Positions 10,627 through 62,073 of a DNA stretch of 64,000 nucleotides are shown here, piece after piece. A program made the position numbers and the translations under genes. The DNA is from Sphyrna mokarran (Eukaryota). Location: positions 930,001-994,000 of the forward strand of contig JAGIQG010000043.1 of assembly GCA_024679065.1 (NCBI GenBank), written 5' to 3'. Under the pieces are notes generated by a model, which searched no databases, was not told where the DNA came from, and saw only the letters and a program-made list of their open reading frames with translations. Each line of letters begins with the position of its first letter. Positions within the stretch are counted from its first letter, which is position 1.

Positions 10627-11560
10627 ATAGAACATAGAACATAGAACATAGAACATTACAGCACAGAACAGGCCCTTCGGCCTTCGATGTTGTCCCGACC
10701 AAAATAAAAAGCAATGCCCCTCCAAACTAAACCATTCCCTTCTCTTCCATATACTTATCAATTAACCTCTTAAACGCCACCAAACTTGGCGCATCTACAA
10801 CAGCTGCAGGCAGGCATTCCACTCCCTAATCACTCTTTGAGTAAAGAACCTACCTCTGATATCCGTCCTATAACTCATAACCCTTAATTTAAAGCTGTGT
10901 CCCCTCGTGCTAGCTTTCTCCATCCTAGGAAAAAGGCTATCACTGTCCACCCTATCTAAACATCTAATCATCTTATATGCTTCAATAAGATCCCCTCTTA
11001 GCCGCCTCCTTTCTAACGAAAACAACCTCAAATCCTTCAACCTCTCTTCATAGACCTGCCCTCCATACCAGGCAACATCCTGGTAAACCTCCTCTGTACC
11101 CTCTCCAATGCCTCCACATCTTTCTTATAATGTGGGGACCAGACTGCACACAATACTCCAAGTGCGGCCGCACTAGAGTTTTGTACAGTTGCAACATGAG
11201 GCTGCGGCTCCTAAATTCAATCCCCCTACCAATAAAAGCTAAGACTCCATATGCCTTCTTAACAACTTTATCCACTTGACTGCCTACTTTCAGGGATCTA
11301 TTGACACATACACCAAGATCCGTCTGTTCCTCAACACTATTAAGAGCCCTACCATTAGCCCTATACTCTACACATTTATTGTACCTGCCAAAGTGCATTA
11401 CCTCACACTTTTCCACATTAAACTCCATTTGCCACCTCTCGGCCCAGCTCTGCAGCTTGTCCAAGTCACTCTGTAAACTATAACACCCCTCTTCACTATC
11501 TACCACTCCACCGACTTTAGTGTCATCTGCAAATTTACTGATCCATCCCTCAATACCCTC
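10627..11560 (-). mobile_element. 5'-truncated young CR1
   Basis: FADD to C-terminus, with tail. Confidence 0.93.
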
Positions 11561-49143: not shown

Positions 49144-51043
49144 GGAGAATTATCTGGATGTACAGGAGGCGGTTGTCTCATGGTATTTTCGCTGGACTGT
49201 GTGAAACTTCGTTTAGGCCGCATTCGGAGTATGGCATTCAATTCTGGTCGCCGCACTATAAGCGGAGGGAGGGGTGGCATGCTTTGGAAAAAGTGCAGGA
49301 GAAGTTGACCAGGAATGCTGCCTAGATTAGGACGCTCAAGCAAAACGTTTTGATAAACTGTTAAGTTTAAGGATTGTTTTAAACATGGATAGAGGCAGAG
49401 CGATTTAAGGTGAGAGCCCAATACCTGAGGTCCGAGTCAGCTTACTATAAATCAGGAATGTTGGAGTGATGGAAATTGTTGGATGTGCAAGACACCAAAA
49501 TCACTTTCAATCCCTTTTCCCGGAGTCCACTTTCAAGATTAATTTAGGCATTGCTCTTAGGGTTAAATAAATCAAGGGATATGGTGGGGGGAGGTGATAT
49601 GGAGAATAGAGAGGTGGGAAGAGGGGGGCAGGTAGTTGGAAGAGAGGACAAGGATATTGAATAGGATAATGACCAATAATCAAAATGAATGGCGAAGCAG
49701 TTTCAAAGTTCCGAATGATCTACTCTTATTCTAGTTTGTGAGTTTCTAAATCATAACACCCTGGCTTTCGAATTATCAATTCGATTCTTGAAACTTTGGC
49801 AGTTGATCCATGTCGTTACATCCGTGCATTGCCGAGGGAGTGCTGCACTATTGATGAGATGCTGTCTTTAGCAGAAGGCAGATGTAAATGTGGAAAATGA
49901 AATTGTCAGAAGAAAATAAAGACAGGATTCTGGACTAATACTTACCTCTTATCAAAGAGGAGTTGATGGTGTCGCGGTATTTTCGCTGGAAGTTTGATCC
50001 AGAAATGTTAATCAATACTCTGGTGGCCCATGTCCGATTCCTCCCTCGACAGATACTGGAATTTCCAAGTATTTCAAACTGGATTAGACCGCTTTTGGAG
50101 TATTGACTTTAATTCTGATCGCCATATTTCACGAAGGATGTGAATGCTTTGGAAAGGGTACAGAAGATTTTATTTGGGATGTTGCCCACATTCGAACATG
50201 GAAGCTGTAAGTGAGGAGCGGGGGTGGGGGGGGTGGTGTGGTGGGATGGCTGGAGAAATTGTGTACTTGCACTGGCGAAGGCTGCTGAGAGACTTGATAG
50301 AAGTCTATAAAAATTTTGAGACGCTCACATAGTGTTGACAGCTCGAGTATTTTCCCCAGAGTTGAAATATATAGTTGAGTGCAGGTCACTTAGACATGGA
50401 ATTTCAATGGCGATGAGAGGTGCAAGTTTTTTTTTACACAGTGGTATGTGTCTGAAACTCACTGATAGGGTTGGTGGCAGAGGAAAATACGACTGGAGTG
50501 TTTATGGAGCTTTTTTTTCGATGAGAACATCGATATGCACGGAATAGATGGAAGTGGAAGAAGGGAAGACAGAAAAGTTTAGTTTAACTTGGTGTGACGT
50601 TCCGCACAACAGCCTGAGCGGAATGGCCTACATCTGTGTTGCACTTTTTCCATGTTCTAATAAAAACAGTCAGGAATTAAGACTTTACTGATGACCATGA
50701 AACCAATCTCGATCGTAATGAAAACTCGTTTTGTTTATTAATGCCCTTTAAGGAAGGAAATCTGGCGTCCTGACCTGGAACGCCTGACATACGGCTCCAA
50801 ATGCGCAGCTTTGTTTCTCAAATGCCTGTCAAATTGATTATCAAATGCCTTCCAAGAGTAACGAAGGATAGGCTTAAAATACTGGCTAACTAGCGTCGCT
50901 CATGTGCTACAATTCAATAAAAATAAGAGTTCAAAGTTAGCTTATCAAGTCATTAGCAAATTTCTGTTCCAAAGATGTTGTATTGGAAAGTCTATTATTG
51001 AGTACAGAAGTACAAACGTCACTGCCGTTCCAAATATGCTTCA

Positions 51044-51247
51044 TAGAACATAGAACATAGAACATTACAGCACAGAACAGGCCCTTCGGCCTTTGATGTT
51101 GTGCCGACCAAAATAAAAAGCAATGCCCCTCCAACTAAAACATTCCCTTCTCTTCCATATACTTATAATTAACCTCTTAAACGCCCCAAACTTGGCGGCA
51201 TCTCAACTGCGCAGGCAGGGTCATTTCCACTCCCTAATCACTCTTTG
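51044..51247 (-). mobile_element. 3' end of an antisense CR1 copy that hosts the full-length insertion
   Basis: (ATAGAAC)n tail and reverse 3' UTR; the sequence resumes at 56804. Confidence 0.9.
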
Positions 51248-52756
51248 ATTGTTCCATTGGAGCAGCACGGAGAGGCAGCGATTTGGGAGAGCGAGAAGTT
51301 CGATTGATAAGTAGCTTTTTAACTTTTCTCTTTGTTTAAAACAGCGAGCGGGAGTAGTTTTTGCCGTTTTTATTTTAAACTAACTTGTAACCGGAAGTCG
51401 TCACTAGGAGGCTGCCGGTAGTTGTAGTTTTTAAGCTATATAAGTACTAACCTCTGGGTATCGGCCTCATTGTTCCATTGGAGCAGCACGGAGAGGCAGC
51501 GATTTGGGAGAGCGAGAAGTTCGATTGATAAGTAGCTTTTTAACTTTTCTCTTTGTTTAAAACAGCGAGCGGGAGTAGTTTTTGCCGTTTTTATTTTAAA
51601 CTAACTTGTAACCGGAAGTCGTCACTAGGAGGCTGCCGGTAGTTGTAGTTTTTAAGCTATATAAGTACTAACCTCTGGGTATCGGCCTCATTGTTCCATT
51701 GGAGCAGCACGGAGAGGCAGCGATTTGGGAGAGCGAGAAGTTCGATTGATAAGTAGCTTTTTAACTTTTCTCTTTGTTTAAAACAGCGAGCGGGAGTAGT
51801 TTTTGCCGTTTTTATTTTAAACTAACTTGTAACCGGAAGTCGTCACTAGGAGGCTGCCGGTAGTTGTAGTTTTTAAGCTATATAAGTACTAACCTCTGGG
51901 TATCGGCCTCATTGTTCCATTGGAGCAGCACGGAGAGGCAGCGATTTGGGAGAGCGAGAAGTTCGATTGATAAGTAGCTTTTTAACTTTTCTCTTTGTTT
52001 AAAACAGCGAGCGGGAGTAGTTTTTGCCGTTTTTATTTAAACTAACTTGTAACCGGAAGTCGTCACTAGGAGGCTGCCGGTAGTTGTAGTTTTTAAGCTA
52101 TATAAGTACTAACCTCTGGGTATCGGCCTCATTGTTCCATTGGAGCAGCACGGAGAGGCAGCGATTTGGGAGAGCGAGAAGTTCGATTGATAAGTAGCTT
52201 TTTAACTTTTCTCTTTGTTTAAAACAGCGAGCGGGAGTAGTTTTTGCCGTTTTTATTTAAACTAACTTGTAACCGGAAGTCGTCACTAGGAGGCTGCCGG
52301 TAGTTGTAGTTTTTAAGCTATATAAGTACTAACCTCTGGGTATCGGCCTCATTGTTCCATTGGAGCAGCACGGAGAGGCAGCGATTTGGGAGAGCGAGAA
52401 GTTCGATTGATAAGTAGCTTTTTAACTTTTCTCTTTGTTTAAAACAGCGAGCGGGAGTAGTTTTTGCCGTTTTTATTTTAAACTAACTTGTAACCGGAAG
52501 TCGTCACTAGGAGGCTGCCGGTAGTTGTAGTTTTTAAGCTATATAAGTACTAACCTCTGGGTATCGGCCTCATTGTTCCATTGGAGCAGCACGGAGAGGC
52601 AGCGATTTGGGAGAGCGAGAAGTTCGATTGATAAGTAGCTTTTTAACTTTTCTCTTTGTTTAAAACAGCGAGCGGGAGTAGTTTTTGCCGTTTTTATTTT
52701 AAACTAACTTGTAACCGGAAGTCGTCACTAGGAGGCTGCCGGTAGTTGTAGTTTTT
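51248..52756 (+). repeat. Tandem array of about 6.8 near-identical 220-221 bp monomers forming the LINE 5' UTR
   Basis: Unit starts (attgttccattgg) at 51248, 51469, 51690, 51911, 52131, 52351, 52572. Confidence 0.97.
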
Positions 52757-52900
52757 CTCTCTGACTCTATAAATTCTTACAGAGAGGTAACCCGATACTC
52801 TACACAGGTAGAGTATCCCACCCTCCCCCCTCCTCTAACCTAATAATAATAGTGTGTGTGTAGGTTTTTTTTTTCTCTCCTGCAAATTAAAGTAACAGTG

Positions 52901-53824
52901 ATGGCAGTGCAGGTAGTACATTGCACCTCCTGCGGTATGTATGAGGTAAGGGACACCAGTGGTGTTCCTGCTGATTATACCTGCAGGAAGTGTGCACATT
53001 TGCAGCTCCTTGAGGATCGTGTTAAGGAGCTGGAGCTGGAATTAGAGGAGCTCAGAGTAATTCGAGAGGTTGAGGAGGATATAGGCAGGAGTAACAAAGA
53101 GATTGTAACTCCTATAAGTGATAATTGGGTAACTATTAGGAGGAGGGGTAAGAAGCAATCGGGGAGACAATCCCCTGGGGCTGTTCCCCTCCAAAATAAA
53201 TTTTCTGTCTTGGAGGCTACAGTTGAGGAAGAATCAACTGGAGCTGACCAAAGGGAGCAGGTCTCTGGGGGTGAGACTGCTGAGAATGCTCAGGTGGGTG
53301 GGGGGAATAAGAGATTAGGCCTAGTTATAGGAGACTCCATAGTTAGAGGGACAGATAGGAGGGTAAATAGTAATAAACAGGACTCAGGGCTGGTGTGTTG
53401 CCTCCCAGGGGCTGGGGTCCAGGATGTTGCAGATCGGGTTTTTAGGATTCTTAAGGGTGAGGGGAGTCAGCCCCAAGTCATTGTTCATGTGGGGACACAT
53501 GATGTAGGTAGGACAAGGGAAGGGGATATTAAACAGAAATTTATGGAGTTAGGGTGGAAGCTTAGGTCCATAACAGGCAGAGTGGTTATCTCTGGACTCT
53601 TGCCTGTGCCAAGGGATAGTTTAGAGATGAACAGAGAAAGGGATAGTTTGAACTCATGGCTGCGTGGATGGTGCAGGAGGGAGGGGTTCAGGTTCCTTAA
53701 CAATTGGGACTCATTCTGGGATAGGTGGGACCTCTTCAAGAGAGATGGTCTACACCTGAACCAGAGGGGGACTAATATCTTGGGGGGAAAATTTGCTAAG
53801 GCTATGATGGGGGCTTTAAACTGA
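52901..53824 (+). CDS. CR1 ORF1p (Cys zinc finger, coiled coil, SGNH-type esterase domain)
   Basis: CTSC..CRKC, LELELEEL heptads, VIGDSIVRG, VHVGTHD and DGLHLN motifs; ORF intact. Confidence 0.9.
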   Translation: MAVQVVHCTSCGMYEVRDTSGVPADYTCRKCAHLQLLEDRVKELELELEELRVIREVEEDIGRSNKEIVTPISDNWVTIRRRGKKQSGRQSPGAVPLQNKFSVLEATVEEESTGADQREQVSGGETAENAQVGGGNKRLGLVIGDSIVRGTDRRVNSNKQDSGLVCCLPGAGVQDVADRVFRILKGEGSQPQVIVHVGTHDVGRTREGDIKQKFMELGWKLRSITGRVVISGLLPVPRDSLEMNRERDSLNSWLRGWCRREGFRFLNNWDSFWDRWDLFKRDGLHLNQRGTNILGGKFAKAMMGALN

Positions 53825-53925
53825 TTCGGGGGGGGGGTGGGATCCTAAGTAGTTGGGGTGCTGAGAGGGATGAGAGTAAGGGGGTTATAGAAGAGAGTTG
53901 TAAAACACAGCGGCGTACGGGTGGG

Positions 53926-56707
53926 GTGGGGCATGGTTTGAAATGCGTATACTTTAATGCAAGGAGTATTCGCAATAAGGGGGAGGAACTTGCAGCTTGG
54001 ACCAGTACCTGGAACTTCGATGTTGTGGCCATTTCAGAGACTTGGGTAGAGCAGGGACAGGAATGGATGTTGCAGGTTCCGGGGTACAAATGCTTTAGTC
54101 GGAGTAGAGAAGGAGGTAGAAGGGGGGGAGGAGTGGCGTTATTGGTCAAAGACTGTATCACGGTGATAGAAAAGAAGTTTGATGAGGACTTGTCTGTTGA
54201 GGTAGTATGGGCTGAGATTAGAAACAGGAGAGGAGAGGTCACCCTGTTGGGAGTCTTTTACAGACCTCCTAATAGTTCTAGAGAGGTTGAGGAAAGGATT
54301 GCGAAGTCAATTCTGATTAGGAGTGAAAGTAGTAGGGTAATTGTGATGGGGGACTTTAACTTTGCTAATATTGATTGGAATAGCTATAGCTCTAGCTCGT
54401 TAGAGGGGTCAGTTTTCGTACAGAGTGTGCAGGAAGGTTTTTTGACTCAGTATGTAGATAGGCCAACTAGAGGTGAGGCTACATTGGATTTGGTGCTGGG
54501 CAATGAGCCAGACCAGGTGTTAGGCTTGGAAGTTAGTGAACATTTTGGTGATAGTGACCACAATTCGGTTACGTTCACCTTAGTGATGGACAGGGATAGG
54601 CATGAAGCTGGGGGCTGTAGTTATAGCTGGGGGAAGGGTAATTATGAGGCCATCAGGAGAGAATTAGGGTGCGTAGATTGGACTAGGGAACTACAGGGAC
54701 TGGGAACATCTGGAATGTGGTGCTTATTCAAGGAGCAGCTGCTGAGAGTCCTTGATAAGTATGTCCCTGTCAGGCAGGGAGGAAATGGTACGAGTAAGAG
54801 AGCCTTGGTGTACGAAAAGAGTTGATTTGCTGGTTAAGAAGAAAAAGGAGGCTTATGTCAGGATGAGGCTTGAAGGCTCAGGTAGTGCAATGGATAGCTA
54901 TAGATTAGCTAGGAAGGAGGTAAAAAGTGAATTGAGGAGAGCTAAGAGGGGACACGAGAAGATGTTGGCTGATAGGATTAAGGAGAATCCTAAAGCTTTC
55001 TTTCGATATGTTAAGAATAGAAGATTGGTTAGGGCAAGATTAGGGCCAGTCATAGATAGCAGTGGGAAGTTGTGCGTGGAGCCTGAAGAGATTGGCGAGG
55101 CACTGAATAAATATTTCTCTTCGGTATTCACGCAGAGTGCTGGAAATGTAGCTGTGGAGAGCACTGAGGTACAGGGTTGCAAATTGGGGAGTATTGTAGT
55201 AGATAGGGAGGATGTGTTAGAAATTCTCGAGGGTTTGAAGTTGGATAAGTCCCCTGGGCCGGACGGGATTTACCCTAGGATTCTCTGGGAGGCAAGAGAG
55301 GAGATTGCAGAGCCTCTGGCTCTGATCTTCAGGTCCTCGTTGGTTACGGGTGTGGTTCCGGAGGACTGGAGGATGGCGAATGTGGTCCCATTGTTTAAGA
55401 AGGGGAAGAGAGACCTTCCTGGGAATTATAGGCCAGTGAGTCTTACTTCTGTTGTGGGCAAGGTATTGGAGAGAATTATTAGGGATAGGATTTATAGTTA
55501 TTTAGAGAGAAATGAATTGATTGGGGATAGTCAGCATGGTTTCGTGAAGGGTAGGTCATGCCTTACTAACCTCATTGAGTTTTTTGAGAAAGTGACCAGA
55601 GAGGTGGATGGGGGTAAGGCGGTTGATGTAGTATATATGGACTTTAGTAAGGCTTTTGATAAGGTGGCCCATGGAAGACTTCTACAGAAAATGCAGATGT
55701 GTGGAATAGAGGGTGATTTAGCTAATTGGATTAGAAATTGGCTGGCAGATAGAAGACAGAGGGTGGTGGTTGATGGGAGATATTCATCGTGGAGTTCGGT
55801 GACGAGTGGTGTGCCTCAGGGGTCTGTTTTGGGGCCCCTGCTGTTTGTAATTTTTATAAATGATCTGGATGAGGGTATTGAGGGATGGATCAGTAAATTT
55901 GCAGATGATACTAAAGTTGGTGGAGTGGTAGATAGTGAAGAGGGGTGTTTTAGTTTACAGAGTGACTTGGACAAGTTGCAGAGCTGGGCCGAGAGGTGGC
56001 AAATGGAGTTTAATGTGGAAAAGTGTGAGGTAATGCACTTTGGCAGGAACAATAAATGTGTAGAGTATAGGGCTAATGGTAGGGCTCTTAATAGTGTTGA
56101 GGAACAGAAGGATCTTGGTGTATGTGTCAATAGATCCCTGAAAGTAGGCAGTCAAGTGGATAAAGTTGTTAAGAAGGCATATGGAGTCTTAGCTTTTATT
56201 GGTAGGGGGATTGAATTTAGGAGCCGCAGCATCATGTTGCAACTGTACAAAACTCTAGTGCGGCCGCACTTGGAGTATTGTGTGCAGTTCTGGTGCCCAC
56301 ATTATAAGAAAGATGTGGAGGCATTGGAGAGGGTACAGAGGAGGTTTACCAGGATGTTGCCTGGTATGGAGGGCAGGTCTTATGAAGAGAGGTTGAAGGA
56401 TTTGAGGTTGTTTTCGTTAGAAAGGAGGCGGCTAAGAGGGGATCTTATTGAAACATATAAGATGATTAGAGGTTTAGATAGGGTGGACAGTGATAGCCTT
56501 TTTCCTAGGATGGAGAAAGCTAGCACGAGGGGACACAGCTTTAAATTAAGGGGTATGAGTTATAGGACGGATATCAGAGGTAGGTTCTTTACTCAAAGAG
56601 TGATTAGGGAGTGGAATGCCCTGCCTGCAGCTGTTGTAGATGCGCCAAGTTTGGTGGCGTTTAAGAGGTTAGTTGATAAGTATATGGATAGGAAGGGAAT
56701 GGTTTAG
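53926..56707 (+). CDS. CR1 ORF2p (APE endonuclease and reverse transcriptase), split by one frameshift near 54790
   Basis: YFNARS, ISETW, MGDFN, SDHN endonuclease motifs; GVPQGSVLGP and FADD RT motifs; two overlapping ORFs, 53926-54825 and 54752-56707. Confidence 0.92.
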
Positions 56708-56803
56708 TTAGGAGGGGCATTGCTTTTTATTTTGGTCGGCACAACATCGAAGGCCGAAGGGCCTGTTCTGTGCTGTATTGTTCTATGTTTCTATGTTCTA
56801 TGT

Positions 56804-57263
56804 TCTTTGAGTAAAGAACCTACCTCTGATATCCGTCCTATAACTCATACCCCTTAATTTAAAGCTGTGTCCCCTCGTGCTAGCTTTCTCCATCCTAGGA
56901 AAAAGGCTATCACTGTCCACCCTATCTAAACCTCTAATCATCTTATATGCTTCAATAAGATCCCCTCTTAGCCGCCTCCTTTCTAACGAAAACAACCTCA
57001 AATCCTTCAACCTCTCTTCATAGGACCTGCCCTCCATACCAGGCAACCTCCTGGTAAACCTCCTCTGTACCCTCTCCAATGCCTCCACATCTTTCTTATA
57101 ATGTGGCGACCAGAACTGCACACAATACTCCAAGTGCGGCCGCACTAGAGTTTTGTAAAGCTGCAACATGATGCTGCGGCTCCTAAATTCAATCCCCCTA
57201 CCAATAAAAGCTAAGACTCCATATGCCTTCTTAACAACTTTATCCACTTGACTGCCTACTTTT
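56804..57263 (-). mobile_element. Remainder of the antisense host CR1 copy
   Basis: Reverse ORF2 C-terminus that continues the 51044-51247 piece. Confidence 0.9.
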
Positions 57264-61973: not shown

Positions 61974-62073
61974 NNNNNNNNNNNNNNNNNNNNNNNNNNN
62001 NNNNNNNNNNNNNNNNNNNNNNNNNNNNNNNNNNNNNNNNNNNNNNNNNNNNNNNNNNNNNNNNNNNNNNNNN
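61974..62073. other. Assembly gap (100 N)
   Basis: Run of exactly 100 N, typical of a gap of unknown size. Confidence 0.99.

Follow-up and report, generated by a model that had tools for sequence, protein, structure and literature searches.

A young CR1-type LINE of a shark genome with tandem 5′ monomers that likely serve as upstream TATA promoters, apparently at the cost of one monomer per round

The window, by which we mean the whole 64,000-nucleotide stretch of DNA that was analysed, carries a CR1-type LINE that begins with a tandem array of monomers and lies within an older CR1 copy. The features of the locus are as follows.

51042..51247, minus strand: left part of an older CR1 copy (a 3′ fragment), the insertion target, with a 92% match to the element's own 3′ end
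51242..51248, plus strand: left target-site duplication, TCTTTG(A), read from both junctions, its last A common to the element start
51248, 51469, 51690, 51911, 52131, 52351 and 52572, plus strand: unit starts
51248..52571, plus strand: six full monomers of 221, 221, 221, 220, 220 and 221 bp, each closed by a TATA segment that the next unit follows
51391..51403 in unit 1, plus strand: CCGGAAGT and CGTCA motifs, candidate sites
51437..51444 in unit 1, also 51658, 51879, 52099, 52319 and 52540, plus strand: TATATAAG
52572..52756, plus strand: last, partial unit of 185 bp, stopping before the TATA box; the sole unit left in most genomic copies
52757..52900, plus strand: tether to ORF1, 144 bp, with TATAAA at 52768
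52901..53824, plus strand: ORF1, 307 aa, with N-terminal cysteine motifs, a coiled-coil-like stretch and an SGNH/GDSL esterase
53800..56707, plus strand: ORF2, AP endonuclease and reverse transcriptase, in two frames in the assembly, split at about 54790
56708..56806, plus strand: short 3′ UTR and (TGTTCTA)n tail, from the sequence and the tails of other copies
56804..57262, minus strand: right target-site duplication (56804-56810) and remainder of the older CR1 fragment

Intact relatives at 10824 and 11798 run on across the insertion point. The uninterrupted minus-strand fragment reads ...CTCTTTG-A-GTAAAG, so the target duplication may be 6 or 7 nt long and the 5′ end of the element may be 51248 or 51249. 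The first-pass annotation had placed this end exactly at the A at 51248; that position stands as one of two, but the A may belong to the target-site duplication instead. The same insertion with the same flanks occurs at five places in the assembly, three of them on small contigs; the five include C1027, C851, C852 and C853, C1027 holding two of them, separated by about 200 kb and oppositely oriented. Their flanks show 0 mismatches in 1500 bp, and two places compared in full show 0 in 6709 bp. Because the flanks are identical, the five are not independent copies and were counted as one insertion, reflecting either a recent segmental duplication or assembly redundancy. The element body has 0 private substitutions in 4023 sites, which indicates a very young copy. 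The window is otherwise rich in 5′-truncated CR1 copies, often nested one in another and of two ages, with an identity to the element of 93-98% for the younger class and about 68% for the older, and it contains a 100-bp N gap at 61974-62073.

ORF1 matched Pfam Lipase_GDSL_2 (E 1.3e-9) and PDB 4c1b (E 8.7e-26), an ORF1 protein that we take to be that of zebrafish ZfL2-1, and ORF2 matched Exo_endo_phos (E 1.7e-20) and RVT_1 (E 2.4e-37). An ORF2 with AP endonuclease and reverse transcriptase, an SGNH esterase ORF1, a short-repeat tail, a short target duplication and 5′ truncation together place the element in the CR1/L2 group; we call it CR1-type, the choice of CR1 over L2 being provisional and following the architecture. 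At 54790 the window copy has, side by side, two bases that alternate in 110 of the 113 records listed, which may be real or a consensus error. Both ORFs were open in 11 of 123 copies overall and in 2 of the 16 multi-junction copies of the tree described below. In the window copy, and likewise in five others whose ORF2 is open, no in-frame ATG precedes the endonuclease (53800-53950); in the same interval the ORF1 stop is followed by a G run. The tether holds donor-like, branch-like and pyrimidine-rich motifs at 52800-52900, directly before the ORF1 ATG; copies missing this stretch were not noticed among 79 loci. In 16 of 144 records (about 15 loci; L064, L128, L126, L107, L181 and others), a Penelope-like element, or fragments of one, is inserted at one and the same CTATAAATTGG site, which lies behind the monomers and ahead of ORF1. 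By eye it has a reverse transcriptase and a GIY-YIG-type C terminus, and the CTATAAATTGG site is duplicated, an apparent target preference directly behind the promoter region of the LINE. At this site (52764-52780) the window copy carries a variant with 22 exact matches that is similar to the end of the insert.

The array at 51248-52756 was reported by TRF with a period of 221, 6.8 copies and 99% matches, bearing out the earlier description of about 6.8 near-identical 221-bp units. Six of its units are full and the last, of 185 bp, ends right before the TATA box; the units differ by one T in a run and nothing else. The motif names ETS, TATA and initiator (consensus BBCABW) are assigned by resemblance; CCGGAAGT is presumably ETS-like and CGTCA CRE-half-like. 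These two motifs had been placed in each unit along with a TATA box, and they are indeed present in seven of seven, but the box is in six of seven, the last unit lacking it. TATATAAG and CCTCATTG are confined to the six full units or the junctions; GCCATCTT is absent from the unit as printed, which holds TATATAAG. The proposed spacing was exact: from the first T of the TATA box to the A of the next unit is 32 nt in all six cases, and to the C at −3 it is 29 nt. In shuffled units, a match to TATAWAWR at any place arose in 34 of 2000. The leader contains no ATG (shuffles were also ATG-free in 132 of 2000), which lends weak support. Between TATA and start, both this family and the diverged family described below have TACT(A/C)ACCT (window 51445-51455 and each unit; L225, L229, L234), which resembles a branch point when read in sense and a splice donor when read in antisense. 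In the diverged unit a further donor-like motif, GGTGAGT in sense orientation, lies about 57 nt past the start; spliced copies were not seen.

We located the starts of genomic copies with a tether pattern that has 1394 exact matches genome-wide. The unbiased sample comprised the 96 tether matches on one contig (C1), less one that was not anchored, five of the diverged family and three in which a large insert hid the start, leaving 87. The copies began at the last border in 42 cases, at the border before it in 6, inside the last unit in 19, inside the unit before in 15 and in the tether in 5, with none further up; 48 of the 87 near-full-length copies therefore have their 5′ end at a unit boundary. 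For a 15-nt window at the last of these borders, the truncation rate inside the last unit predicts 1.3 ends; the count was 42. TATATAA was kept in 18 of the 87 copies and missing from 69, and genome-wide there were 389 exact matches to the TATA segment and 330 to the junction. The monomer-number distribution proposed earlier as a check came out in favour of monomer loss in that most copies carry one TATA-less unit. Two junctions were found in 0 of the 87. The TATAAA of the tether, considered as a second promoter, was rejected: no start cluster lies behind it, and 3 of the first 100 of the 1394 matches begin in the 14 nt before the anchor. The seven RNA runs considered were all contigs, which carry no information on starts, strand or level; in the four that were aligned, the depth gradient resembled copy number.

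The fine structure of the ends was read from a pooled set of 120, with 10 records left out as local duplicates or rearranged. Its 69 border starts fell at −6 (2), −3 (13), −2 (8), −1 (6), +1 (19), +2 (16), +3 (4) and +4 (1), and the peaks at −3 and +1 lie 29 and 32 nt past the first T of the preceding unit's TATA box. At least 3 nt of the end of the lost unit were carried by 15 of the 69 (p 1e-14). In a hand count of the first 100 of 430 genome matches, CTC preceded the A in 35, of which 21 read GCTC, and 7 had 4-11 templated nt. Many copies hold 1-6 nt of the lost unit together with an untemplated G. The clustering of 5′ ends at the monomer A that the first-pass annotation had expected thus exists as a clustering at borders, but with two main starts and not at the A alone.

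A focused TATA-initiator RNA polymerase II promoter has TATAWAWR about 28-34 nt before the start, and here TATAWAWR stands 29 and 32 nt before the two main copy starts. About half of the near-complete copies begin 29-32 bases after a TATA box that they do not have, so one promoter unit is likely spent per round. We therefore favour, with a probability of about 0.72, the reading that this is a young CR1-type LINE whose full monomers are likely upstream TATA promoters, with capped RNA starting at the border of the next monomer and each new copy giving up at least the monomer that drove its RNA. The copy starts would then be RNA polymerase II starts directed by the upstream TATA, TATA-less copies would be poor sources, and the few copies with at least two TATA segments would sustain the family. 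The monomer loss per round that had been postulated thus gains from the border clustering, the mostly single TATA-less units and the remnants of the lost unit with G, while the single start it presumed became two. One observation is not accounted for by this reading: the density of ends in the second unit is 4.1 times that in the last (p 1e-4). Capped starts dispersed over the second unit were considered and found unsupported, there being no excess of G at these ends (5 of 21).

LINEs are held to need internal promoters, as sequence upstream of the start is lost on copying. An internal promoter, made of an initiator and downstream elements in each unit, might determine where transcription begins, as it does in mouse L1 and in LINEs of Drosophila; the TATA box would then be a booster or incidental, and single-unit copies would be fertile. 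The −3 starts keep the initiator-like CTCATT whole, and an internal promoter could use it. The majority of copies have a single unit and long arrays are rare, the position of the TATA box varies between families, and both ORFs are open in 4 of 54 single-unit border copies, all of which suit such a promoter. The 7 starts in 100 that include 4-11 nt from the unit upstream, however, require a parent that had that unit. A GCTC parent should moreover yield GG starts, yet G precedes GCTC in only 1 of 21, and in 10 of 37 non-T cases; and the TATA segment is retained across the whole tree even though 69 of 87 copies are without it. We consider an internal promoter unlikely.

A G lay directly before the start in 11 of 13 ends at −3 and 10 of 19 at +1; the corresponding figures were 10 of 38 for ends in mid-unit and 21% for flanks. 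The split between −3 and +1 was made post hoc, after inspection of the data; over all border ends the count was 27 of 69 against 10 of 38 at mid-unit ends, which is not significant (p 0.21), and some of the Gs at +1 are part of the target duplication. The templated base at −4 is C in the main family and mostly T in the diverged family, GCTC starts occur in both, and an internal GGCTC junction was found in 1 of 30 junctions. At full-length L1 and SVA insertions an untemplated G has been taken as a copied cap, according to the portion of PMC4859970 available. The extra G at the starts of the shark element may likewise be a copied cap.

Border starts could also arise at integration. Each unit begins with ATTGTTC, which is similar to the (TGTTCTA)n tail and through it to the target site; truncated cDNAs might therefore join there by microhomology, or the enzyme might stall at some structure formed by the border. 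Overlap with the target duplication is indeed seen at several +1 and +2 junctions, the window locus included, and T precedes 10 of the 16 starts at +2. Such an artefact nevertheless leaves unexplained the GCTC starts and the untemplated G in two families; the target duplications of copies are mostly 2-5 nt, the predicted fold of the border is no stronger than that of shuffled sequence (z −0.70), and Rfam gave no match. We regard it as very improbable. A ribozyme-processed 5′ end of the R2 kind was rejected on the same fold score, on the lack of any Rfam match at E up to 1 and on the heterogeneity of the starts. At 5′ junctions the element start or the flank is commonly duplicated over a short length, in direct or inverted orientation (L062, L063, L068, L109, L123, L127, L152), which shows that the cDNA end slips often.

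The diverged family (91 matches, 30 of them read) has the same layout with a unit 63% identical to that of the main family (126-129 of 202 positions). Its units are about 208 bp long, with a partial last unit and with border starts that include GCTC in four. Where the main family has TATATAAG, its A/T box is TTTAAAAAG, a non-canonical sequence that does not match TATAWAWR, and this speaks against TATA as a fixed signal. The distance from the box to the A is 34 nt in 11 of 13 and 33 nt in 2 of 13, which puts TTTAAAAAG at 31 and 34 nt from the two main starts. There were 10 partial second units as against 3 complete two-unit copies. Comparison of the two families suggests that the layout is old and the exact box not fixed. 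A tree of 124 bodies, each with at least 2500 aligned bases, was ladder-like with junction-bearing copies at every depth, and a 90%-identical copy had 5.7 mutually homogenised units with the TATA box TATATAAG intact.

Arrays with at least two junctions are rare, amounting to at least 23 insertions among the best 40 of 1430 candidates plus one found elsewhere, and this rarity counts against the reading we prefer. The long arrays that were read have about 2 to 5.7 units, frequently show the −3 to +1 start signature and are mosaics of unit alleles. We also weighed whether the promoter logic holds while the length of 6.8 units arose in the assembly or through a single expansion following insertion, and is not an inherited reserve, a reading compatible with the one we prefer. 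The five identical places, three of them on small contigs, fit such an origin, as do the two alternative bases adjacent at 54790, which a consensus error would give. The 220-bp unit variant is, however, a common family allele, independent insertions hold 2.8, 3.8, 5.3 and 5.7 units, and with 0 private substitutions in the body, identical units are to be expected in any case. We consider this origin of the length quite unlikely. A late expansion of the window array, long after insertion, is likewise unneeded with so unaltered a body. The notion of the array as a consumable reserve was nonetheless overstated: 6.8 units are exceptional, no sampled copy has two junctions, and ORF2 of the window copy is split.

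Under the upstream-TATA reading, arrays would have to regrow. One deletion is present in 20 of the 36 last units examined, is absent from all 50 upstream units and is found with both alleles of another site; units therefore recombine, and at that position the last unit is not the template for those upstream. Regrowth could proceed by unequal exchange, or by a template slip in which the end of the cDNA anneals again one unit further back and an upstream unit is thereby duplicated. We infer that arrays regrow through duplication of an upstream unit and not from the last unit, the least secure part of our account. The alternative that a TATA unit is regained from a random genomic copy was rejected, no chimera of old and young sequence being seen, by eye, among the two-unit copies listed. 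A stricter version, to which we give rather less than even odds, is a LINE that depends exclusively on an external TATA promoter: some three quarters of near-full-length copies would be promoterless at birth, and the family would persist only through the few percent that regain upstream units by duplication at insertion, in effect the LTR trick played at one end. Regrowth would then have left its footprint in the four-fold excess of ends in the second unit.

Our search of the open literature found no CR1 with tandem TATA monomers; Repbase and Dfam entries, supplements and subscription papers lay beyond its scope and may describe one. In Dictyostelium, the A-modules of TRE5-A occur in tandem. 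The shark element resembles TRE5-A in having a 200-bp 5′ module, there with promoter activity, on a non-LTR element, and differs in clade and in its TATA geometry, which the consulted part of PMC3159450 does not describe for the A-module. HeT-A and Penelope use an upstream copy as promoter, according to the part of PMC2377424 available; in the same part, the upstream portion in Drosophila HeT-A is the 3′ end of another element, unlike the dedicated 5′ monomer here, and the Penelope promoter is described as internal and TATA-less, whereas the shark monomers have TATA. With the esterase-ORF1 LINEs of the CR1/L2 group (PDB 4c1b) and the shark and ray HER1 (PMC3747384, from the portion available), the element shares an esterase ORF1, an endonuclease-reverse transcriptase ORF2, a short-repeat tail and heavy 5′ truncation. 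A tandem TATA monomer front end was not found for either in the literature search.

The closest likeness is to mouse L1Md A, Gf and Tf, which also have tandem monomers of about 200 bp and a tether to ORF1, a variable monomer number and 5′ ends clustered at one monomer position. In the mouse arrays the promoter activity of the monomers is additive. In the accessible parts of the mouse papers, daughters have 0.6-1.8 fewer monomers than their donors and are less active, with starts clustering near YY1 sites (PMC10620060); truncation sites coincide with CAGE peaks, and the mechanism of monomer duplication is called unclear (PMC6454616); and young copies mostly retain at least two monomers (PMC9022269). 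Second-strand priming and unequal crossing-over have been proposed as routes of regrowth for the three families (PMC10620060, PMC6454616, PMC9022269 and PMC5381506). The shark element is instead CR1-type with an esterase ORF1, and its sharp start window lies behind a canonical TATA of the previous unit, whereas mouse L1Md starts cluster close to sites for YY1 or AP-1, and the main texts of PMC6454616 and PMC9022269 nowhere contain the word TATA. Of mouse copies with a 5′ UTR, 61% are given more than two monomers in the parts of these sources available, in contrast to 0 of 87 shark copies with two junctions. The shark element is thus not an L1-clade element with a YY1-directed, TATA-less start. 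Belonging to another clade, with TATA in the sacrificed unit and a last unit without it, the element is mouse-like in its working and not a member of the mouse group. Monomer loss per round is already established for mouse L1, which anticipates the concept. The shark case is well supported at the DNA level, and its novelty lies in the TATA build and the clade: a LINE apparently driven from a conventional upstream TATA box, at the price of one monomer per round. With a sharp start and a TATA-less last unit, its copies record start site and promoter loss far more cleanly than those of mouse L1, and this clean record makes the question of array regrowth raised for the mouse (PMC6454616) testable from more than 1000 genomic copies and a simple reporter.
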